From a virus (taxonomy: Duplodnaviria > Heunggongvirae > Uroviricota > Caudoviricetes): a stretch of 64,000 nucleotides of DNA. Both the position numbers and the translations under genes were made by a program. Where the stretch lies: positions 44,671 to 108,670 of IMG/VR virus record IMGVR_UViG_3300031867_003838. One strand, 5' to 3'. Positions 9,001-53,525 of the stretch are shown piece by piece (within the stretch, counting starts at the first letter, position 1; each line of letters opens with the position of its first letter). The notes beneath the pieces are model-generated. The model was not told the DNA's origin and did no database searches. It was given only the letters and a program-made list of their open reading frames with translations.

Positions 9001-11657
9001 TTAAGAAAGGTACTAAGCAATGGTACACCATGCTCAATACGATTGACGGTGTTAAAGAGGAGATAAGACAGTCTACTCTCTCATTGCTTCAAATGCAGAA
9101 CGCGATTGATAAGCTTAAGTTCCAGCAGTTTGAAGATTACATCGCTAAGATCCATACGAACCTTGTTGACGATCCGCAATTCATGATCGATTACATGAGT
9201 TACTTCAAACTATTCAACGACAACGGTTCATACAATAAACTTGGTCAGGCTACGGAAGCTCTGCACACGGAGAAGTATTTTGCACTGATCAACGAGCGTG
9301 ATAGGTATAATAATAAAGTCGCTGATATAGAAAAACAGCTTCAGAGTAATCCAAATGATGAGGAACTTCTGAGTAAGAAGAAGGAATATATTGAGCTGAG
9401 TCAGCAAGCGACAATCGCCGCAATGAATGAGAGGAAGGCCGTCCAAGACCTTGTAAAGGAAGGTATGCAGATTGAGCTTGATAACCTTCAGAAGCTGATC
9501 AATAAATACAACGAGTCTTTGGATAACGCAAAGAACCTGTATGACTATCAGAAGAACATTGCTAAGCAGACTAAGAACATTGCCAAACTTGAGAAACAGG
9601 CGACTGCTTTCTCATTCGACAATTCCGAAGAAGGTCAGGCAATGCGTCAGAAGATTTCTGTCCAGCTTGAAGAAGCGAAAGAACAGCTTGAGGAAACCGA
9701 GTATCAACATTACATCACCGAACAGAAGAAGATCCTCAGCGACATGTACTCCAAATATGAGCAGAGACTCAACGAGCTTTCGGATAACATCACCGCACTC
9801 TTTAAGGATGCGATGGCAAGATCCGAATCGAACAAGAACCAAATCTGTAGTACGATTCTTGAATCTCTCGGAGTAGATGTCAACCCATATCTCGAAAATA
9901 TTTTCAAGTCGGAAGAAACTATAAAGTCGGCTACGATTCATGAGACCAGGGCAATCGACAAAGATGAACTTGAACTGATTCATTCAGCAGATGATTACGC
10001 GAGAACTCCTCATGATAGAAAGGAGTATGAAGGCGGTACTGGAAAACCTCCTATCCCAGAAAAGACCGAAACCAAAGAGGATAAATCAAAAGACGAAGAC
10101 AAAAACAAAAAACAGGATGATAAAACTGATGAAGTAAAATTCGAAAAAGAAACAATATTCAGGGCTACTTCCAAAGTTTATAATGAGGCCATTCAGAATT
10201 TATTAAATCAGTATCAAAAGGAGATCAACAACAATCAAACCCAAATGGCAAAACAAACAGTATCGGACCTGACCAAAATTCTTAACCAAATTATTGCTCA
10301 AGGCAACGCAGACAAGTTAGAACTTGATAAAGTTAAGAAGGCTTATTCGAATATCGAGGCGGCTGTTAGATCAACAGGTATTGATTCGACACAAACAAAG
10401 TTTGGTAATGTTGACCTTAGCAATCGTAAGAGTATTGCGTGGACTAACACCAACCTGAATAAATACGCAACACAGCTTGGATCGTGGGGCATCAAAGCTG
10501 AAGACATCAAGGGTACAACCACGAATCTTATGGCAGATACACACAGGTTTGATGTCAATGGTCAGAAAGTATCCGTGACATTTACCCCAATGTTAGAGGG
10601 GGCAGATGGCAAGGCAACATTGCTCACCCAGGATTCCGTTTATAAATACATTGAGACCATACTCAAGAAAGCCACATGGAATGGCGAAGAGTTAAACTTC
10701 GACAAGGTTCTTAAGCTTGATGCCAAAGGTCTTGAAATTGAAGGCGAGAAGGTCAAAGGTATTATTGCCGAAATCAGTAACGCAAAACAGGGACAGCAAA
10801 GTCACGCCGAGAAGCTTTGGAAAGCATTACAATACATAGGACCAGACGGAGAACTCGGAAAAATTAAAACAGCTCTCGAAGAATTAGAAAGGATCGAGGC
10901 TCTTAAGACTATGGCAGAACAGCTTAAGAAGCTCGGCATTGAAGCCGTTGATGTCGAGAAGGTGATTAAACGTCTGAAAGAAGCAGGCACTGAAGCTGTC
11001 ACGGCCACTGATATCAAGAAAGTTACTACCACACTTCCTACAAAACCAACTACGAACACGCCCAAAACACCTACTACCAAAACATCTACCCCAACAGTAG
11101 ATAAGTCGCTAGAAGAAAAAATAAATAATCACATAGATGAACTTAAGAAGAAAGTAGCTGCCGGTAGCAAGGCAGCGAAGGCTTACTGGACAGACGATAA
11201 AATTGAATCGTATCGTGCGTATTTGTTACGAACAGGTGGTCTTGCATCTGGATCGAAGAAGATCTCTAAAAACGAAATTGCATGGACACAGGAAAATAAG
11301 CCGGAAACGATTGTGCGCAAATCAGATCACGCAGTGCTTACACGTCTTGGCAAAGGCGACCGCGTTTATAACGCAGCTGCTTCAGAGAATATGTGGAAGG
11401 CTGCAAATGATCCGCTTACTTATATTAAAGATGCCTTGTCTGACACACCTGTTCAGGCAGGATCTTCTGTGGCCGGTACGTCAATTGGCAATATTACGTA
11501 TAGCGTGAACATTCCAATTGAGCGCGTACAGGATTACAACGATTTCGTAAACCAGATGCGTGCAGATGGCAAATTTGAAAAGATGATCCAGTCGATGACG
11601 ATTGACAGGATTACAGGTGGAAGCAAACTTGCCAAAAATAAATATCAGTGGTCTTAA
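1..11657 (+). CDS. Tail tape measure protein, 5'-truncated by the window edge (3779 aa visible; frame open back to nt 3)
   Basis: Giant ORF with no stop upstream in frame. N-terminal Gly/Ala-rich hydrophobic segment (GIATGLTAFGWAAVAAAIVAVVGGAIYLGY) followed by long coiled-coil, K/E-rich sequence. Internal protein-level repeats: three ~150-aa units (KFGNV.L...R.SI.WT..NLNKY...WG) and two ~230-aa units (VNNKSGKGL...NAYQRWL.AQ.AGDP). Lies immediately upstream of Dit/Tal-like genes. Confidence 0.7.
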   Translation, partial: AVGGFVKLLTSAITKDPSVGPEIIKNLHKLFTSEQVGSLIFKNFKGKAFKGLIDSADDLTEAIATPIEKGFTLGAEGSSSAVSEIVEKFATDGTIEAAAETAGSVMAEATEKATKKGVTKAVQDAGKDAAVSGAAEAMGNTIGDASGKAAKEGVTKAVKEIGSDAGAEAVGEAIGKKIGGTAGEIIPEGLEKAGVEGGTKAAAGIATGLTAFGWAAVAAAIVAVVGGAIYLGYKQQQEKIKKELEQGVSQWDDDKSKIEEYRQRIRELRDELKDTDLSQEDQSRIKSELLEIQKDIVEQYGEEARTIDLINGDLERQMNILSGIAKEKAEENLRTNREGYEEAKRVMNSKVSATSSGNIILEDPNDVKTMSDLMSRLNSIEGVNASVGNYMRGHDGMFGYTPGTLQYTVDIDYQDVYDTVDGLDEIDAEINKLLNNPQIDFNTKTTLNTLRANLFGTDMVSGDFGKNYSNYTQFAAGDRARREQEFSLQGGEEHIGKLEDAVKSYNNAIAEGDPSKIKETQLAFEDTADAFKEWANQKGFTKEYETYFKDLTSTISTTRVNLIELQDALSNSTNSNTKKLNESRKEISSMLEEISSAGFTKDDTKFGNVLLDQSRQSIRWTEENLNKYKKEIESWDHLQAEDLANTVTSALAKSNTFNVNGKKFEVAFSPILQGKDGRAQLLDSSTLNKYINQVLSEAMADDGKLDLKEVLKIDTRGIKVDGIEIKNVIGDVGEALKGQASQAENTAKAMNYLGENGKISQKELEAQALEQVVALQKLNEAVKEFNLDSTDIENILIRLKEGLINPRALSEEEQAVYDLAKAYGIIPEKINEIKDESIAELIDVLSASGTAIKHFDDIVSDSFEEMASDLKSSIRNAIDGIGMINSAIVNNMSGKGLKMEYDEEAKKYISDIDNLNELFAGLEGYDSSKLFEDTAMGVRLNTDELRKLEAQKRNIDKQEFEKKELTMRHELLILNAEMASQNYRDGKKIIDIENEKIKKHKEELEQIGHLKSAYEGEANAYQRWLAAQQAGDPDALYNNIAQTGLTRLDDLVGQNKYNHPEVRAILELLTGKDLSTASVDQLAEAYRNLNQWLGETDYSMREILSDNNNEDLRRFGNELEKLGYLVNEGGKYKLSDALSMDEAASELQMGVETLQAIIDALNTYVTTFTSVKEQLIYEYNATSDRLAKDLNTAITRIDEVNAALVNNKSGKGLSFSYDPVTKKYTGDVINLTNAFKNLKHSVNGFNPATLFYRSATGIRLNTDELRKLQAAERGIMNQKFESQKIKLQRELSALMHEMQITSLNDTAKLTDAEKEHILTLQEKLRNVEMLKASYDGATNAYQRWLDAQSAGDPGDIYENIANNGIKRLDELMSQGKVGHTEVRALLELITGKDLSTAKIDQLIDLYNDLDRTIGQTSITVRDLFDTENGKGVQNFAEVLKSIGYATGGEGQMQLTKWINTEDIAYLTGLSEEFVEANLNAMKTYGAEFTILSKEVADALNFLDPKIDDYMAKINGIAEEKGLSELQIRFDIAELNDTAEIEAEIQHLTEMRDNLLAEGKMQIDSTEYQLFDNLLGTLNNKVSWLKDELPFQILDSSTIDALKQADETLDKLTETYRYASKAGGTVDIKADTALYEAIDALKKFKPEDLELSLKMHNIDVSPDATTDQIVDAYIKAFEEGTLRTVAEYNESIGEGTESAADNLTKASKTIGETITGAADYLKKKIEEAAKSFADFVTGKSDNPFSKFFTKDSQSGDGNVTTSPKIDTESIRTQTKELEELSKELEAARAKVREAGLDPSQTLVGNIDFRSGRQEIQWTSDLLKDYGTQIQSWGGNAEDLLGKVSSAMVEVEKMPVNGMNFDVAFTPMLQGAGTGGGPAILSKDLMKSYLHAVILEAMNGGEPFSFDAILKIDQQGVEGFKVNGIQIQNMIGAISESLDDGKSQAEKMGEAMYYLGNNGEIEKLVKEMDELGKPVDTKVQISVEGQERIKELQGYLDKLQDGELINVDDPELLGILSKINSLPDSTRVEVLTHFGLDAGAYDTAEEIARALANSFNESMNSGAAVTSEKVGSIASTVEQAVQSMSGAVAHTAEIAEGSSERIKTNSELMSQSLIQASDKMTETAKIVASSLDTTTQFSKAYQSSGSSNSTESSNSSGESINTDDEVEALERLKTAAEEAAAAKESVKTANEDLNISAQASTEALTNEAQSMEMVATSGRNAADAKNELGVANQALTTSIDETITKLNAEAEALNSFLSQNQDGSGIKIGLDTTEYDEFSEKLANDESQDHIINAKATLAVEGQELFDTASASKEYLATDTKGVSAQDVQNIPELQTQNTLKMENAKSTTGTSAQNVLNMDEMQNALSLKNSLAGTTTGYIYLNIDGAINALNSLQDRINSMQNQTIYVNGSANSSFATGTALSRFYGNAYAKGNWGTKKTEEALLAEVGPEILVNPSTGRWELVGQHGPVMKKVPKGSIIFNHKQTEEILKHGHTNSRGQVEGAAHLSGTAYGYGGWNWDSNKNRTNDSYFPDSEDNDVEIADEINNYDYSSPTYNNYGSDSGTINGQQNYSSGGDIAEEIPYHEGGDEPDRVYTKMYRLPDGAKDEFLDPSEARLYTGYYEPLKNRDYVNNGPKPVSQNIAPDSYISDTTSSTKPITSEGPDEFIDDVTDTVTKTSEKVSKSAEKAFDQIVDWIEIYVDRLDNRLADLAKKADDAFLGYNDRIKASKKYVAVAESKIDDYKAAADAYLNMANNVDISHSEMRRIRNGDLDIEHVKDEEKYDKLMEYKDYYEKYLAALEKVEGLSTAKYEQMQKRFQLTNDLFSQKDEEFQSKMEVVQATIESLRANGEDISEHFEDYQELQQLEKDTIRERARHIKALQKSYKEAIDNGLDETSEAAIQMRSTINSLEAENKKATANITSYWRAWMQQVKEQFDDIDEYYSLKSQVIDNRITAISTTKDISTEMGYKESAVYQKQMMRYEELRKPILEAELERLENMLTNVKKGTKQWYTMLNTIDGVKEEIRQSTLSLLQMQNAIDKLKFQQFEDYIAKIHTNLVDDPQFMIDYMSYFKLFNDNGSYNKLGQATEALHTEKYFALINERDRYNNKVADIEKQLQSNPNDEELLSKKKEYIELSQQATIAAMNERKAVQDLVKEGMQIELDNLQKLINKYNESLDNAKNLYDYQKNIAKQTKNIAKLEKQATAFSFDNSEEGQAMRQKISVQLEEAKEQLEETEYQHYITEQKKILSDMYSKYEQRLNELSDNITALFKDAMARSESNKNQICSTILESLGVDVNPYLENIFKSEETIKSATIHETRAIDKDELELIHSADDYARTPHDRKEYEGGTGKPPIPEKTETKEDKSKDEDKNKKQDDKTDEVKFEKETIFRATSKVYNEAIQNLLNQYQKEINNNQTQMAKQTVSDLTKILNQIIAQGNADKLELDKVKKAYSNIEAAVRSTGIDSTQTKFGNVDLSNRKSIAWTNTNLNKYATQLGSWGIKAEDIKGTTTNLMADTHRFDVNGQKVSVTFTPMLEGADGKATLLTQDSVYKYIETILKKATWNGEELNFDKVLKLDAKGLEIEGEKVKGIIAEISNAKQGQQSHAEKLWKALQYIGPDGELGKIKTALEELERIEALKTMAEQLKKLGIEAVDVEKVIKRLKEAGTEAVTATDIKKVTTTLPTKPTTNTPKTPTTKTSTPTVDKSLEEKINNHIDELKKKVAAGSKAAKAYWTDDKIESYRAYLLRTGGLASGSKKISKNEIAWTQENKPETIVRKSDHAVLTRLGKGDRVYNAAASENMWKAANDPLTYIKDALSDTPVQAGSSVAGTSIGNITYSVNIPIERVQDYNDFVNQMRADGKFEKMIQSMTIDRITGGSKLAKNKYQWS

Positions 11658-22645: not shown

Positions 22646-24568
22646 ATGGCGCAAGCACTTGGGGATCTGCCAGTTGGTTCACTGGTGATTGATCCCAAAT
22701 CAAAATATAATAGAGCCGTCATTGTATGGCGAGTTGAAGGCCCTGGAAATGAGGAGTATCCTAAGAATTCGATTGTCCTCACGTCCAGGGATATTATTTC
22801 ATTAAAATGCTTTGATGCACGAGAGCCGTTTAATAGCGATCCAGATCGTATAGAATATGGCAACAATCGGTATAGTCAATCAAATCTTTTGCAGTGGCTA
22901 AACAGTGATAACGAGGACTGGTTCTATAAACAGCATGATCGCGACATGGACCCAAAGAACATGTATGTCTTTGGCAAATTCAACGAATATGCTCGCGAGG
23001 GTGGTTTCCTAAGAAATATTTCAAAGGCTTTGAAGTATTCGATGCTTAATATCAAACAGAAAATGGACATCCCAGAAGTAGACGGTGGGGACGCTGAGGT
23101 TATCATGACTAGAATCTTCATTCAGAGCGAGGACGAACTCAGCGACGAGTTACTTCGTAAACCAACAGAACAAGCTATTGATAGATCTGAATTCAAGAAC
23201 TGGGATGCGCTTGTATTAAAAGCACAAAAGAGAGGTATACCAATAGATGAAATTAACGAGGCAGAAGTATTATTAAGTAAAGATCTGCCGTGGAGCTACT
23301 GGATCAGATCATCTAATACTTCAACTTCGCAGATGGCTAAGGTTGTTACGAACGAAGGAACTATAGAAGATGCGGAATCGTTTAGAGGATATCACGGCGT
23401 AGTCCCGGCATTTGCGTTATTCAATACCACTCTCGTTTCCGACGAACCAAATGAAGATGGATATTATGAATTCATCTTTGGAAAGGTAACAGAGGAAGAT
23501 AATGCTACCGATGAAGAAATCGAGAGTGATGATGTGGCAGCTGGCGATAGTTCATCAAATGTTGACGATGATGCTATTCAAGATGAAGAAGAGGAAGAAC
23601 CTGAAGTAGTCATTGGTGATGAATATGTTCTTGTCCGCGAGAGTAGGATTCGCGACATAGCTAGTGCTATTAATCAAAAGAAAGAGACAGATAAACTATA
23701 TAAACCTTGCGAGTTTGCTACTGCTATCAGAAATATCAGAAAACATGGCGTTCTAAAAATTACTGAAATGTCTGGTGAAAAATATGATGTTTCTGCATAT
23801 GAATATGTTTGGCTAGAGATTCCCGAAGATGAAGACGATAAAGGTAGGAACGTAGTTTCTATACAATTAACAAAAGCTCCTGACACCAACTATTCATACG
23901 GTGATGTGTTTTCAATAGAAGAATATGAAGTGAAAGCATTGTATGATAATAAAACATCCGAGGTGATAACATCACAGTGTGACTTCAGTATAGATGATGG
24001 ATTCGTCTTTCATTATAACGATGTAGATATTCTCAATATAGATTATTATATTAATGATACGCACTTTAATATTAAACGGTCGTTGACAACGGAGAAGAAG
24101 ACGTATGAGTGGATCGAAAGCGAAGCTGATTTCATCCAATATAGCGTAGTTTATAATCATACATTCTTGAATAGAATTCCAGATCAATATGTCTGGGGTG
24201 CAAGTATTTATGGATTATCTCCAAGAAGGTTCACTACGATCAGATATAAATCAGACGGCTTTGATAAATCAACTATAATCATAGCTTCAATTGAACCGTT
24301 TATCTATATCAGATATTGCCCTGATGGCAGAATATTCCATTATGATTTCAGGATGTATACTGCTACAAAGGAAAAGAAAACAGTTTATTATATAGTTGAT
24401 ACTCATCGTGGTGTTTTAATGACTGATACTATTGATATGTCTAAAATCGATGAAGAGGCTGGAGATCCATTTAATTATGGTCCTATTGCTCTTTCTATGT
24501 TTGATGAAGATCCTGATAAAGAAATCATTGAAGATATTGTTGATGATGGAGAGGTTGCAACTGGATAA
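22646..24568 (+). CDS. Hypothetical structural protein with an acidic central region
   Basis: 640 aa, RBS AAGGAGAAAAGGAA ATG. The N-terminal segment GSLVID...AVIVWRV...LLQWLN..NEDWF resembles the fold found in the C-terminal halves of the DGR targets. Confidence 0.45.
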   Translation: MAQALGDLPVGSLVIDPKSKYNRAVIVWRVEGPGNEEYPKNSIVLTSRDIISLKCFDAREPFNSDPDRIEYGNNRYSQSNLLQWLNSDNEDWFYKQHDRDMDPKNMYVFGKFNEYAREGGFLRNISKALKYSMLNIKQKMDIPEVDGGDAEVIMTRIFIQSEDELSDELLRKPTEQAIDRSEFKNWDALVLKAQKRGIPIDEINEAEVLLSKDLPWSYWIRSSNTSTSQMAKVVTNEGTIEDAESFRGYHGVVPAFALFNTTLVSDEPNEDGYYEFIFGKVTEEDNATDEEIESDDVAAGDSSSNVDDDAIQDEEEEEPEVVIGDEYVLVRESRIRDIASAINQKKETDKLYKPCEFATAIRNIRKHGVLKITEMSGEKYDVSAYEYVWLEIPEDEDDKGRNVVSIQLTKAPDTNYSYGDVFSIEEYEVKALYDNKTSEVITSQCDFSIDDGFVFHYNDVDILNIDYYINDTHFNIKRSLTTEKKTYEWIESEADFIQYSVVYNHTFLNRIPDQYVWGASIYGLSPRRFTTIRYKSDGFDKSTIIIASIEPFIYIRYCPDGRIFHYDFRMYTATKEKKTVYYIVDTHRGVLMTDTIDMSKIDEEAGDPFNYGPIALSMFDEDPDKEIIEDIVDDGEVATG

Positions 24569-29698: not shown

Positions 29699-30898
29699 AT
29701 GCCACAAAATATTATTCAAGGTGTAAAAGTAGATGGTACCATCTACAAATATGATTATGAAAGTCTGGAGAACCTTCCAGACCCGGAACTGCCATCAGCT
29801 ACGGCAAGTGATGAAGGGAAAGCACTTGTGATCAACTCTACCGGTGATCCGGCGTGGAAAACACCCGCGTCTGGCCTGCCGTCAGCTACGGCAAGTGATG
29901 AAGGAAAAGCGCTTGTGGTCAATTCCACCGGTGATCCGGCGTGGAAAACACCCGTGTCTGGCCTGCCGTCATCTACAGCGAGCGATTCAGGGAAAGCACT
30001 TATGGTCAATTCCACCGGTGATCCGGCATGGTCAGCAATCCCGTCGGACTTACCTGCCCATGTTTCCAATGACAATGGTAAAGCCCTTGTGCTTAACAGT
30101 ACAGGAAATCCAGCCTGGCGAGATATCCTTCCAAAATATTCACCGCAAGATGCAGGAAAGGTTCTTGTTCTTGGATCATCAGAACCAGGAGGGAGCGGAA
30201 ATGAAGGACCTCAGTGGGGCAGTGCACTTCCGACTGGTTCTTCTATCGGATTTGCACTGGTGATCGACTCGACAAGGAAACCGGCATGGAAAGATCTGAA
30301 ATATCCTGCCTGTGGTTCCCAAGATAGGGGAAAGACACTTGTGGTTAATACGACAGGTGAACCTGTCTGGAGCACTCCAAGTGGAGCACTCCCGACCCTT
30401 GGATCTCATGATGAGGGAAAGGCTCTGGTCGTTAATGATAGTGGCCGTGTAGCATGGGCCGAAGTACTGCCGACATGTGACACCCCCGATAGTGGCAAGG
30501 TACTACGAGTCAATTCAACTGGTAATGCGGCATGGAGTAATATGTCTGATGTATTAGTGTGTGATAGTACCGACGCAGGGAAAGCACTCGTGGTTAACCC
30601 GTCAGGTAAACCGGTGTGGGAAGAACTTCTTCCGACACATGATACCAGTTATGATGGATCTGATGCAGGTAAAGTACTTACGGTGGCTACTAATGGTTCA
30701 CTTACCTGGGAAGAAGGAGGAAGCGGCGGCCTGTCACTCCCGGACCCAAGCGACACTAATGAAGGGGATGTTCTGAAGGCTGATGGGTCTGGTGCTTATT
30801 CTTGGGGAAGTCTTCTTCCAGTTTATGATACGTCTGATGACGCGGGAAAAGTGCTCACGGTTACATCGAGCGGGCTCCGCTGGAACAGTCTGTCGTAA
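29699..30898 (+). CDS. Repeat protein (about 12 copies of a ~29-aa motif ..D.GK.LVVN.TG.P.W...LP)
   Basis: 399 aa. The first three repeats are near-identical at DNA level. Confidence 0.5.
   Translation: MPQNIIQGVKVDGTIYKYDYESLENLPDPELPSATASDEGKALVINSTGDPAWKTPASGLPSATASDEGKALVVNSTGDPAWKTPVSGLPSSTASDSGKALMVNSTGDPAWSAIPSDLPAHVSNDNGKALVLNSTGNPAWRDILPKYSPQDAGKVLVLGSSEPGGSGNEGPQWGSALPTGSSIGFALVIDSTRKPAWKDLKYPACGSQDRGKTLVVNTTGEPVWSTPSGALPTLGSHDEGKALVVNDSGRVAWAEVLPTCDTPDSGKVLRVNSTGNAAWSNMSDVLVCDSTDAGKALVVNPSGKPVWEELLPTHDTSYDGSDAGKVLTVATNGSLTWEEGGSGGLSLPDPSDTNEGDVLKADGSGAYSWGSLLPVYDTSDDAGKVLTVTSSGLRWNSLS
29789..30049 (+). repeat. 3 x 87-bp tandem repeat (about 90 percent identical), each encoding LPSATASDEGKALV.NSTGDPAWKTP.SG
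   Basis: Units start at 29789, 29876 and 29963. Confidence 0.85.
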
Positions 30899-30930
30899 TA
30901 AACAACCAAACAAACAAAAGGAGAAAACCA

Positions 30931-32673
30931 ATGACTTTGGAAATTTTAGTGAACCACTATCAGGAAAATGAATCAATCGTAGAACGCTTCTTTTCATCCC
31001 TTGCCATGCAGAGGGGTGTGGAGTTCCGGGTTATGCTTTGCAGTGACGGGGGTGTGAGACTGCCCCCCGATCTTTTTTGTAAGTTCCAATTTGAAATTAC
31101 CTACCAGTACCTTCCCCACACCGGTGTGTGCCATACGAGGAACGTCATGCTGGAAAAGGCGACAGCTGATTATCTGATGTTCTGCGATGTGGATGACTGT
31201 TTTTCTTCCCCGTATGGGCTTAGCAGTCTGATGGCTGCAGCTGAGAAGTCGCGTGCGGACGTAATCGGATCGCCGTATCAGTGCGAAAGGCTCATAAACG
31301 GAAAATATGAGTACGCTACCTATAAGAACGACACGATCCGCGTCCATGGGAAGATCTTCAGGAGAGCGTACCTGACTGAGAACCACATCCGTTTCCCGGA
31401 TGAACTGGAAACGAGCGGCGACATGTCTTTCCTGTGGCTCACCTATGCGTTGACGGACAGAATCGTTTGGGTTCCTGAGAACTTCTACATCTGGAAGTGG
31501 AATCCGGACTCAGTGACCAGGGCTGATCCGTACAGCCATGTGATGAATTATGATCGGACGCTCAGGTGTTATGAGCTTTTGGCGAAGGATCTTGTGAGAA
31601 GGAAGCGGGGGGATCTGTTCCAGAATCTGGTGTCGACAACGATTTCTATGATTTATGTGGATATGACGCATCCGAGATGGAGACAGGCACCAAAGGAGTA
31701 TCAGGAGAGGGCGCGGAAAGCTGTCTGCGGTTATCTGTCCGAGTACTATGAGTTTTATGCGTCCGTAGATGAGAATTACAGGAAAAGCAAGTACCTTCTC
31801 ATGCTGAACTATAAGAATTTCCAGGGATTTTCTGATCCTTTTGAAAAGATTGATGAGTGGGCGCATTCTTTACTTCCTGCAGCCGATCAACCCAAAGGTA
31901 ATGGAGAAGAGAAAAGAGAAGAAGGCAGCGTCCTCATCATCGGCTATGGTGTCGTCGGTTCCAATCTGGCCAAGGAGTTGAGTCCTCTAAACCCCGAAAC
32001 CTATGATAAATACAAGGAAATCGACACACGGACAGCCGACAAATACAAAGTCGCCTTCATCTGTGTGGACACACCGGCGACTGGTGATTCGGACTGTGAC
32101 ACGACTGAAGTAAAGAACGCGATCATGGAGAATGAAGCACTTATATATGTGGTGAAGAGCACAGTTCTCCCCGGCACAACGGAGAGATTGATGCGTGAGA
32201 CAGGAAAGCACATAATCTTCAGTCCGGAGTATTATGGCGGCACGCAGCACTGCAATAACTATAATTTCGATTTTACAATCCTTGGCGGTGAGAAGGATGC
32301 CTGTATCAAAGTCGTTCAAGTATTACAGAAAGTATATGACGCTCGTCATCAATTTAGGATTACTGATTCGAAGACAGCAGAACTTGCGAAATATATGGAG
32401 AATAGCTATCTTGCAATGAAGGTATCATTCTGCAATCAGTTTTACGAAATCGCAAAGAAAGCCGGTGTGTGCTACGAAGAACTCCGTGAGCTGTTCGTTC
32501 TTGACCCACGAGTGGAACCATCACATACATTTGTGTACAGGGATCACCCTTGGTGGAGCAGCCATTGTTTAAATAAAGATGTTCCTGCTATTGCAAATGC
32601 TTATGACGCGAAATTATTACAAGACGTGATTGATTACAACACTGAATGTAAGACGGGCGATAGGGTATTATAA
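30931..32673 (+). CDS. Fusion protein: family-2 glycosyltransferase (N-terminal) + UDP-glucose/GDP-mannose dehydrogenase-like domains (C-terminal, truncated)
   Basis: GT2 signatures: VMLCSDGG and DxD motif FCDVDD. Rossmann motif IIGYGVVGS. UGDH central-domain match ENSYLAMKVSFCNQFYEIAKKAGV...LDPRV...SSHCLNKD. The region is much more GC-rich than the surrounding genes. The UDP-sugar-binding C-terminal domain is absent. Confidence 0.6.
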   Translation: MTLEILVNHYQENESIVERFFSSLAMQRGVEFRVMLCSDGGVRLPPDLFCKFQFEITYQYLPHTGVCHTRNVMLEKATADYLMFCDVDDCFSSPYGLSSLMAAAEKSRADVIGSPYQCERLINGKYEYATYKNDTIRVHGKIFRRAYLTENHIRFPDELETSGDMSFLWLTYALTDRIVWVPENFYIWKWNPDSVTRADPYSHVMNYDRTLRCYELLAKDLVRRKRGDLFQNLVSTTISMIYVDMTHPRWRQAPKEYQERARKAVCGYLSEYYEFYASVDENYRKSKYLLMLNYKNFQGFSDPFEKIDEWAHSLLPAADQPKGNGEEKREEGSVLIIGYGVVGSNLAKELSPLNPETYDKYKEIDTRTADKYKVAFICVDTPATGDSDCDTTEVKNAIMENEALIYVVKSTVLPGTTERLMRETGKHIIFSPEYYGGTQHCNNYNFDFTILGGEKDACIKVVQVLQKVYDARHQFRITDSKTAELAKYMENSYLAMKVSFCNQFYEIAKKAGVCYEELRELFVLDPRVEPSHTFVYRDHPWWSSHCLNKDVPAIANAYDAKLLQDVIDYNTECKTGDRVL

Positions 32674-32793
32674 AAGCAAAATTTTGTAATTAACACGGCC
32701 GACTCAGACGGAAATACAACTCACCTTTATCTGCTTGTCAGTGATCTGATTGACACATACACGGCTGGGGACGGCATCACGATTTCAAACAAT

Positions 32794-33366
32794 GTGGTCA
32801 GCGCCAAAATTGTAACCGCAAATGGCCTGACTATCGACGCGACAAATGGCATTAGTTTCACACATCCCGCAAGCGGAGTGACGCCTGGGACTTACACACA
32901 AGTAACTACCGATGCGCAGGGTCATGTTACCACTGGTGCAAATCCTAGCACTATTTCAGGCTACGGGATTCTTGATGCATACACTAAGACGGAAGTGGAT
33001 ACCGCCCTTTCTGGCAAAGTAAGCACTGAACAGGGCAAAGGATTATCCGCTAACGACTTTACCAATACATTGAAGACAAAGCTCGAAGGGATTTCGGCAG
33101 GCGCAGAAGTCAACGTTAACGCAGATTGGAATGCTTCATCAGGCGACGCGCAGATTCTAAACAAACCGACAACAGTTGCGGGATATGGTATTACGAACGC
33201 GTACACCAAGACAGAAATTGATTCTGCATTGTCAGGCAAAGTCAATACCGAATCTGGTAAAGGACTTTCATCTAATGACTTCACAACCGCGCTAAAAACA
33301 AAGCTTGAAGATATCGAGCCAATTACCGACGCTGAAATCATTGCCATTTGGAGCGGAAAATCTTAA
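32794..33366 (+). CDS. Fibre-repeat protein (GKGLS.NDFT repeats), probably the C-terminal remnant of a disrupted fibre gene
   Basis: No ATG and no SD; the ORF track starts it at a GTG. The reading frame is open back to the TAA of the upstream gene (32671-32673), and the upstream in-frame sequence is homologous to 26295..27179. C-terminus ITDAEIIAIWSGKS. Confidence 0.4.
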   Translation: MVSAKIVTANGLTIDATNGISFTHPASGVTPGTYTQVTTDAQGHVTTGANPSTISGYGILDAYTKTEVDTALSGKVSTEQGKGLSANDFTNTLKTKLEGISAGAEVNVNADWNASSGDAQILNKPTTVAGYGITNAYTKTEIDSALSGKVNTESGKGLSSNDFTTALKTKLEDIEPITDAEIIAIWSGKS

Positions 33367-33377
33367 AAGGAGGCACT

Positions 33378-35174
33378 ATGAAATACTTAACCTATGATGG
33401 TTTAAGAACATTAACCAATTTAATTAAAGGCGACATAAACGGTATTTCAGGTAATGTCATCCCTACATTCGAAGAAGTATACGACAACCTGATAAACCTT
33501 GACGAAGACACGAGCGGCCATACAGAAGGGAGCTTCCAATCCGCTGAAGGTCTTCACGGCCTTAGATATATCAACGGCGCATTCGAAGTCGCCGTTCCTA
33601 CATATACACCCGTCACTCCTTCGTCTGGCGACAACCCAAGCGAAGAAGGATGGTACGAAGAAACAAGTGGTACGTACTCTCCCACCGATGATACTACACC
33701 GACACAAGACAAAACTTATTACGAGAAAACGGTATCATGGACGGAGGTACAGGAAAAAGCCGTTGGAGAGATTGAAGTGATCCCAGAATTTTCGCAGAAA
33801 ACCTATACAGGTTCTGCACAGACCGTAGTTACTGCTGGTGAAGGAACGGGTGACATGTATTACTATTTGTCCGATTCTTCTACGGCTCCGGCAAGCAACG
33901 CGTATTCAACGTCACTTCCGACTCTGACGAATGCGACAGCCAATACGTATTACTTGTGGTATTACTCAGGAAAAACGAGTCAATATAAAGCAACAACGCC
34001 TACGTATGTCGTATGGCCTGGCGCTGCGGATCACATGCTGATGCAGAAAGCAACACCGACTATTACAAAGTCAACTAGTTCTGTATCATTAGACAGTTCA
34101 AATATGACACAAGATGTAACTATTACTGTTGTAACTGACGGAAGTCTAACTGTGTCTTCTTCAGATGTTACAATTGCAACTGTTTCCAATCTTTCTGGTA
34201 GCACCTATCGAATTTCTGCGGTTGGGGGTGGTAGTTGTACAATTAATATCAGTGCTACGAATGGGGTAAACTTTAATTTTTTGAGCGACTCTATTTCAGT
34301 TACTTGTACACTTATAAAATCGTTAAATGATTCTACTTGGTCTGAGATTTCTCAAGCTTCATCATCTGGTGTAGCCAATTCATATTGGAATGTAGGTGAC
34401 TGTAAGGAGATCACATTAAATGGTACGGTCGGTACTTTGGCACTTAGTAACAAGAAACTGTGCGTGTACATTCTTGGGTTTGATCACAACTCAGCGATTG
34501 AAGGTAGTGGTATTACTTTCGGCGGATTCAAGACGGCTGTTACGGGTGGAAAAGATGTGTGTTTGATTGATGGTAATTATAATTCATACACTACTAACGG
34601 TAGCAAATGGTTTAATATGAACCACTGGGGTAATTATAACTATGGTGGCTGGGCTGCAAGTGATGTGCGTTACGACGTTCTTGGAAGCACAAACAGTGCA
34701 CCATCTTCATATGGTAGTGCGAGAACAACATCCTCAACTGGTAATAATCCAACTAACACATGTGCTACAAGCCCAGTCAGTAACACACTGATGGCCGCAC
34801 TTCCAGAAGATTTAAGGGCTGTGATGAAACCAATCACAAAGTATACAGATAACAAAGGTAATAGTTCAACTGCTGCTGCAAATGTAACTACAACCATTGA
34901 TTACTTGCCGTTAATGTCTGAGTACGAAGTATTTGGTTCTACTTCTTACGCTAATACTAATGAGGCAACTAATCAGGCAAGGTATGCTTACTACGCCAAC
35001 AACAACAGCCGTGTGAAGTATGGGCATAGTTCAACTGGGTCTACCGCCCATTGGTGGCTTCGTTCTCCTGGCCGTTCGTACGCGAACCGCTTCGTGCGTG
35101 TTCACACTGACGGCAGTGTCTCCAACAGCCCCTCTAGGCTTTCGCGTGGCCTGGCGCCGCTCATTTTGATCTGA
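33378..35174 (+). CDS. DGR target protein 1: BIG2-like Ig domains + C-terminal lectin-like variable domain (WWLRSP...GLAPLILI)
   Basis: RBS AAAGGAGGCACT ATG. Paralog of 35536..37356. The C-terminal ~40 codons form variable repeat VR1. Confidence 0.65.
   Translation: MKYLTYDGLRTLTNLIKGDINGISGNVIPTFEEVYDNLINLDEDTSGHTEGSFQSAEGLHGLRYINGAFEVAVPTYTPVTPSSGDNPSEEGWYEETSGTYSPTDDTTPTQDKTYYEKTVSWTEVQEKAVGEIEVIPEFSQKTYTGSAQTVVTAGEGTGDMYYYLSDSSTAPASNAYSTSLPTLTNATANTYYLWYYSGKTSQYKATTPTYVVWPGAADHMLMQKATPTITKSTSSVSLDSSNMTQDVTITVVTDGSLTVSSSDVTIATVSNLSGSTYRISAVGGGSCTINISATNGVNFNFLSDSISVTCTLIKSLNDSTWSEISQASSSGVANSYWNVGDCKEITLNGTVGTLALSNKKLCVYILGFDHNSAIEGSGITFGGFKTAVTGGKDVCLIDGNYNSYTTNGSKWFNMNHWGNYNYGGWAASDVRYDVLGSTNSAPSSYGSARTTSSTGNNPTNTCATSPVSNTLMAALPEDLRAVMKPITKYTDNKGNSSTAAANVTTTIDYLPLMSEYEVFGSTSYANTNEATNQARYAYYANNNSRVKYGHSSTGSTAHWWLRSPGRSYANRFVRVHTDGSVSNSPSRLSRGLAPLILI
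35042..35166 (+). repeat. DGR variable repeat VR1
   Basis: 125 nt aligning with the template repeat at 37983..38107. 21 of 24 differences fall on template adenines. Confidence 0.6.
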
Positions 35175-35535
35175 TTTTTTTCATCGAGAAAAAAGAATAA
35201 AACACTCAAAGGCGTATGCGCACGAAAGTGTGCATCGCCTTAAATGAGAACCAAAAAAACATTAAGTTAATGTTCTTAACGTGACGCCGCGAAGCGGCTG
35301 AAAATTATTAGTTTATACAACAACTACAAAACCCTTTTGTGGAAACAACAACAAAATTCCAACGGTGGTCAATAAAACGACAATTTTATGGGTGTTTTGA
35401 CCACAATATGTTGTGGTTTTTGAAATTTCAAAAACTATATATAGTGGGTGTCGATACCTATAGAACTACTAATTGTGGTATGACACTAATTTTGTAACTG
35501 TAAACCGCATTTCCTCGTAAGGATAAGGAGGAACT

Positions 35536-37356
35536 ATGAAATATTTAGATTATAACGGCTTGACAGTTCTGTCAAATGCGATCAAAGGTGATTTGTCTAG
35601 TTTTACAGATACCGTGATCCCGACATTTGAAGAAGTGTATAGCAATTTGTTTACAATCGACCAGGATATTGAGGAACACAAGGAAGGTGAAGTCACTGAT
35701 CCTGACGGGATTCATGGCATTCGCTACGCAGATGGCGCTTTTCAGGTGGCGAATCCGACTTACGCAGAGGCTTCGCCCGCATCAGGAAGCAACCCGAAAG
35801 AATTAGGATTGTATGAATTGGTTAATGGCAACTATGTTCTAACTGATGATGAGGAAATTGTTTCTGGCAAAACTTATTACACAAGAAATGATTCATGGGA
35901 TGATGTAATCACGAAACCTGCTGGAAGTGTTACGACAACACCTTCATTCTCTCAGAAGACTTATAACGGATCTGCACAGACTATTGCTACTGCTGGCGAG
36001 GGAACTGGCACGATGTATTATTGTCTGTCAAACTCTTCTACTGCTCCGGCGCGTTCAAGCTATAGCACGACGTTGCCGACATTGACTGACGCGACAGATG
36101 CCACATATTATCTGTGGTATTATGCTGGCGCGTCTTCAAGCTATAAGGCTACTACGCCTGACTATGTAACATGGATCGGATCTGCAAATAACATGCTTAT
36201 GCAGAAAGCCGAACCGACTATCACAAAATCGAAATCATCTGTTTCACTCAGCACTGCGCAAATGTCCGATGATGTGACAATCACTGTGGTGACAGATGGC
36301 ACATATACGGTTACTTCGTCAGATACATCTGTTGCGACTGTGACAAACACATCTGGCAATACCTATCATATTGCTGTTGTGGCAAATGGTACGTGTACGA
36401 TCAATATTGATGTGGCAGAAGGATCGAACTATGCAGCAGCGTCAGACACTATTTCAGTTAGTTGTGCGTTGGTGAATAATACACTTGATAACAATGACTG
36501 GTCTACTATATCCGCGATTTCTGCGGCAGGTACTGGTAGTACATATTGGTCTGTTGGTGACTGCAAAGCGATTACACTCAATGGTACTGTTGGCACACTG
36601 AGTTTAAGTAATGTAACAACTTATGTTTATATTCTTGGATTCAATCACAACTCAAGTGTAGAAGGAACTGGCATTACGTTTGGTGGATTTAAAACTGCGG
36701 CATCTGGCGGTACAGATGTATGCTTGGTTGATAGTAAATATAATTCAAATGCTGGAAATAGTGGTGGCAAATATTTCCAGATGAACCATTGGGGATCATC
36801 GTCAAACCCGTACAATACTAACTATGGTGGCTGGGCGGCTTGCGATATGAGATATGACATCCTTGGTAGTACCGATTCACAACCGACTCCATATGGTAGC
36901 ACAAAGACTACATCCGCTACTGGTGTAAATGCAAGTAGTACATGCGCAACTAATCCAGTAGCAAATACCTTAATGGCAGCGCTTCCATCAGATCTTCGTG
37001 CGGTGATGAAACCGATTACTAAGTATACGGATAATAAGGGTAATTCAAGTACAGCGGCCGCTAACGTGACGGCTACTATTGATTATCTTCCGCTTCCGGC
37101 AGAAAAGGAAATATTTGGGTCAATTAGTAATGCAAATACAAATGAGGGTACAAACCAGGCACAGTATGCTTACTATGCTAACAACAATAGCAAGGTGAAG
37201 TATCGGCATGACGGCACGTCAACAGCCGCCCGTTGGTGGCTTCGTTCTCCTTACCGTTCGTACGCGTCCCACTTCGTGTCTGTTTACACTAGCGGCATTG
37301 TCAACTTCAACGGCTCGGGCAATTCGTTTGGCCTGGCGCCGCTCATTTTGATCTGA
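35536..37356 (+). CDS. DGR target protein 2 (paralog of target 1)
   Basis: RBS TAAGGAGGAACT ATG. Same domain order as target 1. The C-terminus carries VR2. Confidence 0.7.
   Translation: MKYLDYNGLTVLSNAIKGDLSSFTDTVIPTFEEVYSNLFTIDQDIEEHKEGEVTDPDGIHGIRYADGAFQVANPTYAEASPASGSNPKELGLYELVNGNYVLTDDEEIVSGKTYYTRNDSWDDVITKPAGSVTTTPSFSQKTYNGSAQTIATAGEGTGTMYYCLSNSSTAPARSSYSTTLPTLTDATDATYYLWYYAGASSSYKATTPDYVTWIGSANNMLMQKAEPTITKSKSSVSLSTAQMSDDVTITVVTDGTYTVTSSDTSVATVTNTSGNTYHIAVVANGTCTINIDVAEGSNYAAASDTISVSCALVNNTLDNNDWSTISAISAAGTGSTYWSVGDCKAITLNGTVGTLSLSNVTTYVYILGFNHNSSVEGTGITFGGFKTAASGGTDVCLVDSKYNSNAGNSGGKYFQMNHWGSSSNPYNTNYGGWAACDMRYDILGSTDSQPTPYGSTKTTSATGVNASSTCATNPVANTLMAALPSDLRAVMKPITKYTDNKGNSSTAAANVTATIDYLPLPAEKEIFGSISNANTNEGTNQAQYAYYANNNSKVKYRHDGTSTAARWWLRSPYRSYASHFVSVYTSGIVNFNGSGNSFGLAPLILI
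37226..37348 (+). repeat. DGR variable repeat VR2
   Basis: Aligns with the template repeat. 19 of 20 differences are at template adenines (AAC to TAC/TCC/CAC/TTC/GGC and similar). A GC-rich hairpin lies about 35 nt downstream (37386-37420). Confidence 0.75.
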
Positions 37357-37453
37357 TTTTTTCATCGAGAAAGAAACAAGACACTCATTGGGCGTGGGCA
37401 CGCGGAAGTGTGCCTCGCCCTTCACAATACTGAAGAAAGGAGAAATTCTCGTT

Positions 37454-37951
37454 ATGTCTGTATTAAAGAGTAAACGAAAAGAAAGTAAAGTTGAATTTCT
37501 GCGTGTAGCAAACGAAATCTATGAAGATACTCTGTGGTTTTTAAGCAGACTATCTGATCGTTATCAACGGTTCTTATGTGAGCATGTAATGAAACTTGGA
37601 TGTGAAGTAATCAGTGAAACTGTAAAAGCGAATCATATTATAATTCAGAGTAAGGCATCGTATGAAGCAAGAAAGATCCACTTATCAGAAGCACTATCTT
37701 CGCTCAATGCATTAGATGTTCAGTTAGGACATATATGGGCACTATTAATGAGGAATCCAGAAGGGTGTTTCAGAAACTCCGCAGGAGAATCGAAACCGCC
37801 CTCGGAGGCAATCAGCAAACTCAACTCTATGGCTGAAAATCTTGGAAACAAAATCGAGTACGAAGAAAACATGATCAAAAAGATTATGAAAAGCGACAAA
37901 GAAAAGTATAACAAGATAAAAGCTGAAGAGAAAGAGACAATCAAAAACTAA
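37454..37951 (+). CDS. Accessory variability determinant (Avd)-like small basic helical protein
   Basis: Lies between VR2 and the template repeat. RBS AAAGGAG before the internal ATG at 37454 (the ORF track starts at 37388). 165 aa, predicted helical, K/R-rich. Confidence 0.45.
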   Translation: MSVLKSKRKESKVEFLRVANEIYEDTLWFLSRLSDRYQRFLCEHVMKLGCEVISETVKANHIIIQSKASYEARKIHLSEALSSLNALDVQLGHIWALLMRNPEGCFRNSAGESKPPSEAISKLNSMAENLGNKIEYEENMIKKIMKSDKEKYNKIKAEEKETIKN

Positions 37952-37982
37952 AACAGGAGGAATAAAGGGTGCATTTCTGTAT

Positions 37983-38107
37983 TACCGCCAATTGGTGGCT
38001 TCGTTCTCCTAACCGTTCGAACGCGAACAACTTCGTGAATGTTAACACTAGCGGCAGTGTCAACAACAACAACTCGAACAATTCGAATGGCCTGGCGCCG
38101 ATCATTT
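37983..38107 (+). other. DGR template repeat (TR)
   Basis: Non-coding copy of the target 3' ends. It reads through in the VR reading frame and is adenine- and AAC-rich (aac cgt tcg aac gcg aac aac ... gtc aac aac aac aac tcg aac aat tcg aat). It has no start codon and no downstream hairpin. Confidence 0.75.
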
Positions 38108-38162
38108 ATAAACGTGTCGCAATTTCATAAGACATATAAATGAGGAGAAATGTTTCCCGTGG

Positions 38163-39467
38163 TTGCAATGCCACAAAAGTGCTAATGTACGTCAGGCACG
38201 GACGCTTCTTGCATGGTGGAGAATGGGTACTACCTCCATTTCATGTGCTGTGACTACGCATCGTGAAGGTATCCCCTACAACAGCGATGTGGCGTTAGCG
38301 AATAATTTAAAAATGACCAGTATTGAACGACATGAAAGGCGTTATCAACGACGTAAACAGAAAAGAGAAGAACGTCGCGAAGAACGCTTAAGTAAAATTA
38401 AATCAGTGGATGAGATCTTCGCATTTAACAAGATGTTTAAATACGGCGAACAGTGCTGTAGAGGTGTAATGTGGAAACATTCTGCGCAGATGTTTAAACT
38501 GCATCTGTTCTCGCGCACTGCTTCCAACATCAAGAGAGCGAAGAATGATTACAAACCAAAGCCGCTTTCAAAGTTTACGATCAGTGAACGCGGTAAAACA
38601 AGACAGATTGAGGCGCCGCATATTGATGACAGACAAATCCAGAAAGCGCTTGTGCATGAAGTGCTTTTGCCTGTGTATCTGCCACATATGATCTATAACA
38701 ATGGCGCGTCACTAAAGGGTAAAGGCTTACACTTTTCACAGGCACAACTTGACAAGATGCTTCACAGGCATATCAATCGGTATGGTATGAATGGGTGGAT
38801 CATCACGGCTGATATGAAGGGTTTCTTTCCGAATGCGGATCGCAACGTCGTAAAAGAGAATCACAAGATGATCAAGAATGAGCAAGTGCGCAATATCCTC
38901 GACACGATTACAGACATCGGAAGCGGCGACAGAGGACTACCACTTGGCGTTGAGCCGTCACAGGTTGAAATGATCGCACTTCCCTCTCCGCTCGACAACT
39001 TTATGTGTTGCCAGATGGGATTAAAGGGCTTCGGTCATTACATGGACGATTATCATATCATCGTGCCGCCCGACAGAGATCCGAAAGAGATTCTCGAAGT
39101 GTTTATTGAAAAGGCAGCAAGCATCGGAATTACCGTGAGTCGTGATAAAACAAGAATTATTCCATTCGGTAAGCCTTTTAAGTTCTGTAAGATGAAGAGA
39201 ATATTTGACAAGGACAGGATCATTCATCGCGGATGCAGAGATAGCGTAAAACGGCTCCGCACTAAGATTAAGAAGTTTTCAAAAACGGAAATGAACATGG
39301 AGGATATTGCAACCTCGATTGGTAGCTCATTATCTTACTTCGGGATAACGGATGATCATTACACGGTGTTGAAACTCAAGCGGCTATTTTATAAAGAATT
39401 TGGTTTTACATGTGAGGAATTACAAAGGAGAAATAAAGATGGAGTATATTTGCCACAGGCCGTATAG
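38163..39467 (+). CDS. DGR reverse transcriptase
   Basis: RT motifs in order: RQIEAPHIDDRQIQKAL, ITADMKGFF, LPLGVEPSQ (the DGR-type GxxxSQ signature) and GHYMDDYHII (YxDD). Start uncertain: the track uses TTG at 38163; ATGs at 38223 and 38313 are alternatives. Confidence 0.8.
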   Translation: MQCHKSANVRQARTLLAWWRMGTTSISCAVTTHREGIPYNSDVALANNLKMTSIERHERRYQRRKQKREERREERLSKIKSVDEIFAFNKMFKYGEQCCRGVMWKHSAQMFKLHLFSRTASNIKRAKNDYKPKPLSKFTISERGKTRQIEAPHIDDRQIQKALVHEVLLPVYLPHMIYNNGASLKGKGLHFSQAQLDKMLHRHINRYGMNGWIITADMKGFFPNADRNVVKENHKMIKNEQVRNILDTITDIGSGDRGLPLGVEPSQVEMIALPSPLDNFMCCQMGLKGFGHYMDDYHIIVPPDRDPKEILEVFIEKAASIGITVSRDKTRIIPFGKPFKFCKMKRIFDKDRIIHRGCRDSVKRLRTKIKKFSKTEMNMEDIATSIGSSLSYFGITDDHYTVLKLKRLFYKEFGFTCEELQRRNKDGVYLPQAV

Positions 39468-52129: not shown

Positions 52130-52324
52130 TTATATTGCGGATAACTGGGTCGTCCGGGGTAGACGTGTTATCCGCGTAATCCCCTTGCGGTTCAGGCTGT
52201 TCCGAGTGCCGCCAATTATATGCCCAGTGTGCTATTTTTTAAGGTGGTTTCGGTTCCACCACTTCAGGCAAAGATTGATCGCGCAAAGCGTGAAATCTTT
52301 TCGTGTTGCTGACGAAAAGATTAA

Positions 52325-52396
52325 CTGGGGATCTGCGAATCGAACGCAGGATGTAGCAGTCAAAGTGCTATGCCTTAACCACTTGGCGAATCCCCA
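52325..52396 (-). tRNA. tRNA-Gln (anticodon UUG)
   Basis: Full 72-nt cloverleaf on the minus strand: TGGGGAT T C GCC-AAGTGGTTAA-GGC A TAGCA-CTTTGAC-TGCTA CATC CTGCG-TTCGATT-CGCAG ATCCCCA G. Confidence 0.8.
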
Positions 52397-52788
52397 AAGA
52401 AAGGAGCTGACCCTAACATCTCTCACGCCTAGGTCAGCACGGTTAATACCAGGCGATGTGTTATTCCCGTGCCAAAAATAAAGGATTATGAAACAGAGTG
52501 TGCTATTACGCCAAAGCATCCACGCCGACATATCTTGGGGAATATATAGGTATATTACATGTCGGTACTATCCTATATACCATGGTCGTGCCAAACCACA
52601 CACCCAAGTTGTGAGATCCATACCGTTAAGCGATGCCTTTCGCATAGGTACGTACAATGTACTTATCGGTCATGCCTGTAAATCATGTCCTGTCATCCCA
52701 CACACGGAATTCGCATGAAACGATTCCGTCCATCGCGATGCACTCTTTAGATGATGGCTGCTTCTAAGCCTACATCCTCTATTTCAAA

Positions 52789-52861
52789 CCGGAACGGCAG
52801 GAATCGAACCTGCATTCAAGCCATCAGCAATGTACCTGTTCTGCCATTAAACTACGTTCCG
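52789..52861 (-). tRNA. Degenerate tRNA-like element (tRNA pseudogene?)
   Basis: Perfect 7-bp acceptor (CGGAACG/CGTTCCG), U8A9, D-arm GTTT-AATGGCA-GAAC, T-arm GCAGG-TTCGATT-CCTGC and canonical spacing (73 nt). No anticodon stem can be formed. Confidence 0.25.
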
Positions 52862-53525
52862 AAATGCCTGTCTTTCCAGGCTGCCAGACCCTTTGCCTAC
52901 CTAGACATTTCACGGATTCGAACCGCACCTCGTCTTTACCAAAACTCGGTCAGCGAGCAGAATCGAACTGCATTTATTATGCGGGTGAAGATTTGCACCT
53001 CACATGAAGATGATTTTTTTCAATGCAGGGTTATCGCAATGGTCGTGTTAGCTCTTAATCTTAACGAGCTGTTCCTACTCGCAAGTCATCTTCTCCCTGT
53101 TGACCCCGTCTACCTATTCCGCCACCGCATAACATTTATTTTCAAACGCTACCTGTTCAAAATTGCTATCATAGCAGCTCCATATAAGCCTCGGCGTAAA
53201 CCAACATCCAACCGCACAGAATTGCACAGGAGATTTTCGTATTATTTACTACCTATTGTGTATTGTATACTGCTTATATAAAATTTACTGCTTATTGCTT
53301 ACACTACCTACTGAATACTAGCTACTGTCTACTACTTAAATCATCGACGCTGACAATTTTTAAATGTATTATAGGCACATTTAATATTTTGTCTGCATAA
53401 CTTTTATTTGTATATATTTCCTTGTTAGAGCAGATTTTTTATAGTTTTACATCTCTCAACCTGCAAAACTAGAGATGGGATGTTGAAGTGAGACTTTCGC
53501 TATGATAGCAATAATGTTATTAGTT

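Follow-up and report, generated by a model that had tools for sequence, protein, structure and literature searches.

We analyzed the two variable repeats (VRs) of a diversity-generating retroelement (DGR) in a 64,000-nucleotide stretch of a Caudoviricetes genome (positions 44,671 to 108,670 of IMG/VR record IMGVR_UViG_3300031867_003838; this whole stretch is referred to as the window), and found that the three changes in VR1 that fall outside template adenines reproduce, in position and base, the states of a template repeat (TR) allele that is not the one residing in the window. VR2, in turn, carries the states of the resident allele at all diagnostic non-adenine sites. We therefore propose that VR1 was last written from a template of the other type and that recombination among mosaic phages paired it with the present TR, a reading to which we assign a probability of roughly 0.78. 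The locus is a canonical, ordinary phage DGR with two targets, its TR is polymorphic among related phages, and both VRs show adenine-specific diversity.

Non-adenine changes in VR1 match another template allele

The three 123-nt copies (TR, VR1 and VR2; Table 1) were aligned without gaps, in the register obtained from the repeat search. Relative to the resident TR, here called allele W, VR1 differs at 21 adenine (A) sites and at three non-A sites, the latter being TR G38051>A at 35110 (agc>gac, together with A38050>G), G38076>T at 35135 (tcg>tct) and C38079>G at 35138 (aac>agg, together with A38078>G). The only non-A change in VR2 is TR G38057>T at 37298 (agt>att). A preliminary description of this DNA had listed exactly these codons and counts, which the ungapped comparison confirms, and had offered two explanations: either VR1 is homed less often and accumulates ordinary mutations, or the two targets are serviced unequally. 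As bare counts, 3/90 non-A differences in VR1 versus 1/90 in VR2 are not significantly different (Fisher p = 0.62). One of the A-site differences, at TR position 117 (A38101), is invariant, since all strains examined have C in their VRs and A in their TRs there; it is a fixed difference between the initiation of mutagenic homing element of the VR (IMH) and its template counterpart (IMH*), not as mutagenesis.

Close relatives were collected by exact-protein look-ups in ENA and Logan assemblies (one look-up, with P0021, was empty), yielding ~40 contigs that are 94–99% identical across the cassette, several of them from bovine metagenomes. The TR was called as a 53-aa open reading frame (ORF), so its alleles could be counted as proteins. 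No close relatives were found in phage GenBank records by blastn, in IMG/VR with an exact VR-flank pattern, or in JGI metagenome contigs and GTDB genomes with an IMH pattern; 12 pattern matches showed no similarity to the cassette and were discarded as chance hits. An IMG/VR search based on the reverse transcriptase (RT) returned only distant relatives, at 46–59% identity, which served as outgroups.

For allele W (...NTSGS...NSNNS), 4 contigs were listed and 8 read, while for the commonest allele in the related contigs, DR (...NTDGS...NSRNS; 53-aa ORF P0009), the figures were 17 and 23. The two differ at TR positions 66, 67, 92, 94 and 95, corresponding to TAGC>TGAC and TCGAAC>TCTAGG; DR states are present in the TRs of contigs L009, L026–L032, L034 and L039–L041. 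We also encountered a third allele, X, and the private variants T23C and C107G. VR1 carries the DR state at five of five diagnostic positions, and its comparison with DR leaves 19 A-site and no non-A differences. The chance that three random non-A substitutions would hit the DR positions and bases is ~3e-7. The assignment of VRs to TRs by a perfect non-adenine match is accepted practice (PMC10907252). Since all three non-A changes in VR1 are exact DR states, they represent the imprint of a DR-type template, and the suggestion that they are accumulated ordinary mutations does not hold. VR2 differs from W at one non-A site and from DR at four. Its single non-A change, G38057>T, matches no known TR allele and is plausibly a private substitution, explicable by RT noise at a template G or by one point mutation; one such change is unremarkable given an upper bound of ~0.7 non-A events per cDNA for this TR composition.

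The correspondence between VRs and template alleles extends to the relatives. VRs of DR strains show DR states; VR2 of L010 fits X; VR2 of L034 shares C23, a private variant, with its own TR; and the G107 of the sample's TR is also found in VR1 of L042 and VR2 of L039. The TR of outgroup L001 (RT 59% identical) likewise has GAC and AGG, which implies that the alleles predate the strains and are being redistributed among them. Back-conversion from VR to TR was considered as the origin of the TR alleles and rejected, because the alleles retain 32–33 adenines and their differences are not adenine-specific.

The TR is also a local hotspot of between-strain variation. The window and L009 differ at 6/123 positions in the TR and 7/993 in the flanks (p = 0.001), and the window and L041 at 5/123 and 5/848, respectively (compared region 37349–38464). 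These changes are not adenine-specific and mostly affect scaffold codons (S/D, N/R, S/A), a pattern that suggests either selection on, or exchange of, template alleles.

A proposed recombination history for VR1 and its alternatives

According to the reading we favor, mutagenic retrohoming from a DR-type template would have written VR1. Homologous recombination among co-circulating phages would then have either imported the 3' end of target gene 1 or replaced the VR2–TR block, and no homing into VR1 would have occurred afterwards, with VR2, located 0.64 kb from the TR, being W-type like the resident template. Integration of DGR cDNA begins at the 3' IMH end. Later homing from the resident W-type TR would thus have erased TCTAGG first, and the persistence of this motif argues that VR1 has not been rewritten by it. 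We infer both the order of these events and that recombination, as opposed to an in-situ change of the TR, was their cause; in-situ TR replacement is the alternative origin of the mismatch between VR1 and the TR.

Mosaicism is evident around the element. The middle of target gene 1 (window 34031–34480) has 61–73% identity to L026, L028 and L034, whereas its flanks have 93–100%. Over 13.7 kb, L026 and L028 are identical except for seven scattered differences, the two VRs and a ~200-nt patch just upstream of VR1. Such a patch outside the VR could not be produced by homing, and it therefore favors recombination. Gene conversion from the paralogous target gene 2 was tried as the source of the L028 patch and gave no clean match. 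Mismatches between VR and TR alleles recur elsewhere, namely in VR1 of L028, VR1 of L034, L037 and L038 (three samples), VR2 of L051 and L052, and VR2 of L054.

Differences in gene content are seen nearby as well. Upstream of target gene 1 (29699–33366), the window encodes three proteins, of 399, 580 and 190 aa, the second being a glycosyltransferase/UDP-glucose dehydrogenase fusion, while the same interval in the L026 group (L026:2664–5206) encodes proteins of 126, 296 and 341 aa; a swap of cargo or of a tail module appears to adjoin the DGR. At a 90% protein clustering level, target 1 of the window is alone in its cluster, and target 2 clusters with four other sequences.

Several points weigh against the proposed history. 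The linkage of VR1 to a W-type TR comes from one metagenome contig of 151.7 kb (ERZ27256863:k141_412684 in ENA), to which the window is identical, and L025, from another assembly, confirms target gene 1 together with VR1 but ends 10 nt past VR1. No relative has a target gene 1 close enough to show a breakpoint beside VR1, and either direction of exchange, import of VR1 or replacement of the TR, is compatible with these data. Finally, trans-homing by a co-infecting DR-type phage would give the same footprint.

In this last scenario, cDNA from a co-infecting or co-resident DR-type phage would have rewritten VR1 without any DNA recombination. The IMH-like flank and hairpin are common to strains and to both VRs, several TR alleles co-occur within one sample series, and DGR components are known to act in trans, both experimentally and in natural genomes (PMC5758913, PMC10907252). 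We nevertheless consider trans-homing unlikely: a VR/TR mismatch elsewhere is accompanied by the recombination patch outside the VR described above (L026 versus L028), and the 64-kb window holds no second TR-like copy (neither a further TR nor a third VR, no other copy reaching 70% non-A identity).

A strain-chimeric assembly, in which a DR-type target 1/VR1 was joined to a W-type target 2/TR/RT across an identical stretch, appears rather improbable. The source is a k141 metagenome assembly, the interval 35378–35528 is 99–100% identical among strains, and some VRs, such as that of L043, resemble 5'/3' chimeras within one biosample. The mismatch of the L034 lineage was, however, recovered identically from three samples, three sources carry exactly these target 1 and target 2 proteins, and the TR–VR2 mismatches of L051/L052 and L054 span only 0.64 kb.

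A third possibility is that homing used the resident W-type TR and that the non-A changes arose as errors of the RT or of integration. Non-A-to-N differences are found in 23% of DGRs, frequently with an unlike pattern at each target of an element (PMC5758913), and the BPP-1 RT misincorporates at up to ~1.6% at template G, the non-A base at which its baseline error is highest (PMC7826257); at this level, the G>T in VR2 is plausible. For VR1, this explanation is barely credible, as three independent errors would have to copy the exact bases of another allele; moreover, three of seven VR1 copies and 12 of 15 VR2 copies have no non-A mismatch to their own TR.

Comparison of homing at VR1 and VR2

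The remaining alternative, that VR1 is seldom homed and gathers point mutations, is in line with its larger number of non-A differences, with the near-clonal pair L036 and L037, separated by 15 differences in VR2 and none in VR1, and with the contigs from outside Logan, which break within VR2 in 5/16 cases and within VR1 in 0/10 (p = 0.12; Logan breaks, with k = 31, were left out as confounded by a 37-nt repeat common to the two VR flanks). We regard it as very improbable, given that all three changes match an existing TR allele and that VR1 does change near-clonally: L026 and L043 differ at 19 positions in VR1 and at only seven in the other 5.6 kb. VR2 behaves in the same manner, with all 18 differences between L026 and L032 over 5.2 kb lying within it, and the near-clonal variants differ from their TR at adenines only. 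Three samples of the L034 lineage share one VR1 sequence, and the VR2 of one of them differs by 15 sites; one sample contains two different VR2 variants.

The preliminary description had proposed comparing the polymorphism of the two repeats among relatives. Differences at A sites turn out to be similar across strains, 14–21 in VR1 and 13–20 in VR2, and this comparison speaks against unequal diversification. Non-A mismatches to the cognate TR are present in 4/7 VR1 copies (three in the window, two in L028, one each in the L034 lineage and L043) and in 4/15 VR2 copies, and the asymmetry tests are not significant (Fisher p = 0.12–0.27). VR2 of L051/L052 and L054 mismatches its own, W-type TR at 3–4 non-A sites and bears an X-like signature (A23, T50 and C59, plus T83 in L051/L052), so that VR2, too, can outlive its template. 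Furthermore, VR1 lies 2.8 kb and VR2 0.64 kb from the TR, a 4.4-fold difference, and recombination alone would therefore predict more mismatches at VR1.

Together, the sequences support the view that VR1 of this genome, gauged against the resident template, is the older of the two repeats. The idea of unequal servicing survives in part: VR2 agrees with the TR now present, which has not rewritten VR1, but a systematic under-servicing of VR1 is unproven.

Two further features of the VRs in relatives were recorded. The AAC AAC AAC AAC run of VR2 is 3 nt longer in L027 and L028 (L028:9062–9187) and 3 nt shorter in L054 (L054:119–253); the other differences fall at adenines, and the codon-sized indels fit register slippage during cDNA synthesis. 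In addition, VR1 of L043 (5351–5473) consists of the 5' half of that of L047 (4220–4342) and the 3' half of that of L028 (6884–7006), and VR2 of P0005 combines the 5' part of P0004 with the 3' part of P0003. These composite repeats could reflect partial 3'-to-5' replacement during homing, recombination, or assembly chimeras within a biosample.

IMH-like ends and downstream hairpins

The GC-rich element GGCCTGGCGCCG is present in all three copies. The flank TGATCTGATTTTTT is identical behind VR1 and VR2 and has no counterpart behind the TR, where ATAAACG follows; this putative IMH flank is the same across strains. Each VR is followed by a GC-rich hairpin with a GRNA-type loop (Table 1); the preliminary description had noted a hairpin downstream of both. 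Folding of the 84-nt VR1 flank gave z = −6.4 and that of the VR2 flank z = −2.8, and no such hairpin was found in the TR flank. The hairpins lie ~42–45 nt past the VR end and are kept in all related VR flanks. GC-rich hairpins with GRNA loops downstream of the VR constitute a class of target-recognition element in BPP-1 and other phage DGRs, at reported distances of 4–34 bp from the VR, slightly less than observed here (PMC3240598).

Layout of the cassette and its surroundings

The DGR is located between the tail and lysis genes of a large phage genome, in the order target 1/VR1, target 2/VR2, accessory gene, TR, RT-2 spacer RNA and RT (Table 1).

Table 1 Features of the DGR cassette in the window (positions numbered from the first nucleotide of the window)
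Feature	Positions	Strand	Description
Target gene 1	33378–35174	+	598 aa; ORF open from 33348; from the ORF list and translation
VR1	35044–35166	+	24 differences to the resident TR: 21 A-site, 3 non-A
Foreign-allele signature in VR1	35109–35138	+	TGAC at 35108–35111 and TCTAGG at 35133–35138; resident TR has TAGC and TCGAAC
IMH-like 3' end of VR1	35148–35190	+	GC-rich GGCCTGGCGCCG, fixed C, flank TGATCTGATTTTTT
VR1 hairpin	35211–35239	+	GC-rich; loop GAAA, GRNA type
Target gene 2	35536–37356	+	606 aa; C-terminal DUF6273 carries VR2 (Pfam)
VR2	37226–37348	+	20 differences to the resident TR: 19 A-site, 1 non-A
VR2 hairpin	37390–37420	+	GC-rich; loop GGAA, GRNA type
Accessory gene (Avd position)	37454–37951	+	165 aa; between target gene 2 and TR
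TR, allele W	37985–38107	+	123 nt; 33 adenines, 90 non-A
Structured RNA, Rfam RT-2 (RF03077)	38112–38319	+	DGR spacer RNA position, TR to RT
DGR reverse transcriptase	38313–39467	+	384 aa; motifs LGVEPSQ and YMDD

In target 1 (phrog_37900; also 598 aa in the gene call of the source contig), VR1 is carried by a C-terminal DUF6273 domain (Pfam E = 1.6e-9), and each VR ends 8 nt ahead of the stop codon of its gene. The targets are paralogues with 63% protein identity, within the 60–70% that had been estimated by eye. DUF6273 was assigned by a sequence match, and no sequence relative of the targets was found in the PDB. A DGR with two targets for one TR is, as the preliminary description stated, the less common arrangement, accounting for 13% of 372 DGRs (PMC5758913). 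Distant relatives (L001:7113–7912, L003:7087–7898 and L004:372–1204; RT 46–59%) have a single VR, 672–699 nt upstream of the TR. This spacing equals that between VR2 and TR in the window, indicating that a duplication within this lineage gave rise to the two-target state and that target 1 is, by this comparison, a lineage-specific duplicate.

The accessory protein has no Pfam match, and its phrog, phrog_30516, is of unknown function; the gene is kept in all relatives. A single-sequence AlphaFold model, with a predicted local distance difference test (pLDDT) score of only 65, is all-helical with four long helices; a Foldseek search of the PDB returned nothing significant (best E = 0.08), with only weak matches to the Xcc0516 bundle (2gsc). 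The RT-2 RNA is matched over its full length (101 bits versus a gathering score of 40; E = 5.5e-23). The RT matches RVT_1 (E = 2.9e-10) and phrog_1423 reverse transcriptase (E = 4.8e-57), and its two motifs agree with the signature of the DGR clade ([I/V/L]GxxxSQ and YxDD). Its ORF is open from 38163, with the first 150 nt overlapping the RT-2 RNA, and gene-call lengths vary (434, 414 and 384 aa). The true start is likely ATG 38313, just where the RNA ends; in related contigs the gene has been called at 384 aa.

Upstream of the DGR are tail-fibre-like proteins, and downstream an XkdX-like protein, endolysins and an integrase. A 640-aa protein encoded at 22646–24568 (+) has an N-terminal DUF6273 domain (phrog_10993, 'Hoc-like head decoration'; motif WSYWIRSS). 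It was rejected as a DGR target, contains no copy of the TR, and looks like a non-diversified relative of the target domain in the same phage. The window begins with a single 3779-aa ORF at 318–11657 (+) and includes two tRNA genes (Gln and Ser) at 52324–52862. An integrase is also encoded on complete-looking related contigs of 152–156 kb, suggesting a large temperate phage.

Implications for reading TR/VR mismatches

Non-A mismatches between TR and VR are commonly taken as RT errors, decay or noise. While the DGR described here is itself standard, what is modestly new is the explanation of its non-canonical differences by turnover of TR alleles. VR1 and VR2 record different template histories, and where phages recombine a VR can outlast its source template. 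How purely a VR matches the resident TR is consequently a poor guide to DGR activity at that target, and TR alleles are worth surveying before non-canonical mutagenesis is invoked. Allele-diagnostic non-A sites, moreover, offer a cheap means of ordering homing and recombination events in metagenomes.

A broader and more doubtful proposition is that the TR forms a second, slower layer of variation, with scaffold alleles exchanged between, or acting across, genomes and VRs keeping a datable imprint of their template. If so, non-A mismatches could serve as a clock that times homing against recombination, and much of the 'non-canonical mutagenesis' in surveys would be template turnover, not RT infidelity. 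Should the imprint in VR1 stem from trans-homing, it would amount to a natural transfer of DGR information between genomes.

Comparison with known systems

The cassette shares with the BPP-1 DGR (mtd-avd-TR-brt) the order of a target with a 3' VR, a small accessory gene, TR, spacer RNA and RT, as well as adenine-specific differences, a GC-rich element with a VR-specific 3' flank (IMH versus IMH*), the [I/V/L]GxxxSQ motif of the RT, and a GC-rich GRNA-loop hairpin downstream of the VR (PMC3240598). In contrast to the single target of BPP-1, there are two paralogous targets with DUF6273, which by sequence is not the C-type lectin domain of Mtd. The hairpins also lie ~42–45 nt from the VR end, the 165-aa accessory protein has no Pfam Avd match, and the spacer is an Rfam RT-2 RNA.

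Similar in arrangement are the two-target DGRs of human-gut phages (nd4/nd12 'tentaclin'), in which one TR likewise serves two tail-region targets, VR1 never equals VR2, and related genomes show a small number of non-A (B>B) substitutions (PMC10743442). There, the targets are unlike in architecture and the genomes were chosen for identical TRs, whereas the targets in the window are paralogues. The non-A changes in those phages were ascribed to homing-independent mutation (PMC10743442); unlike them, the changes reported here can be assigned to polymorphism of TR alleles.

The DGR survey of Wu et al. described non-A-to-N differences, unlike patterns in the two targets of one DGR, and codon-sized indels opposite AAC runs, all of which recur in the present phages (the indels in L028 and L054), and ascribed the non-A-to-N differences to RT infidelity, integration errors or independent mutation (PMC5758913). 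Here, population data point to a template-allele mismatch instead. Lastly, in the multi-DGR loci of Thiohalocapsa PB-PSB1, VRs have been matched to TRs, including non-adjacent ones, at all non-A sites (PMC10907252), as VR1 is matched to DR. The TRs of Thiohalocapsa coexist in one genome and act in trans, whereas the allele that matches VR1 is found only in other strains.

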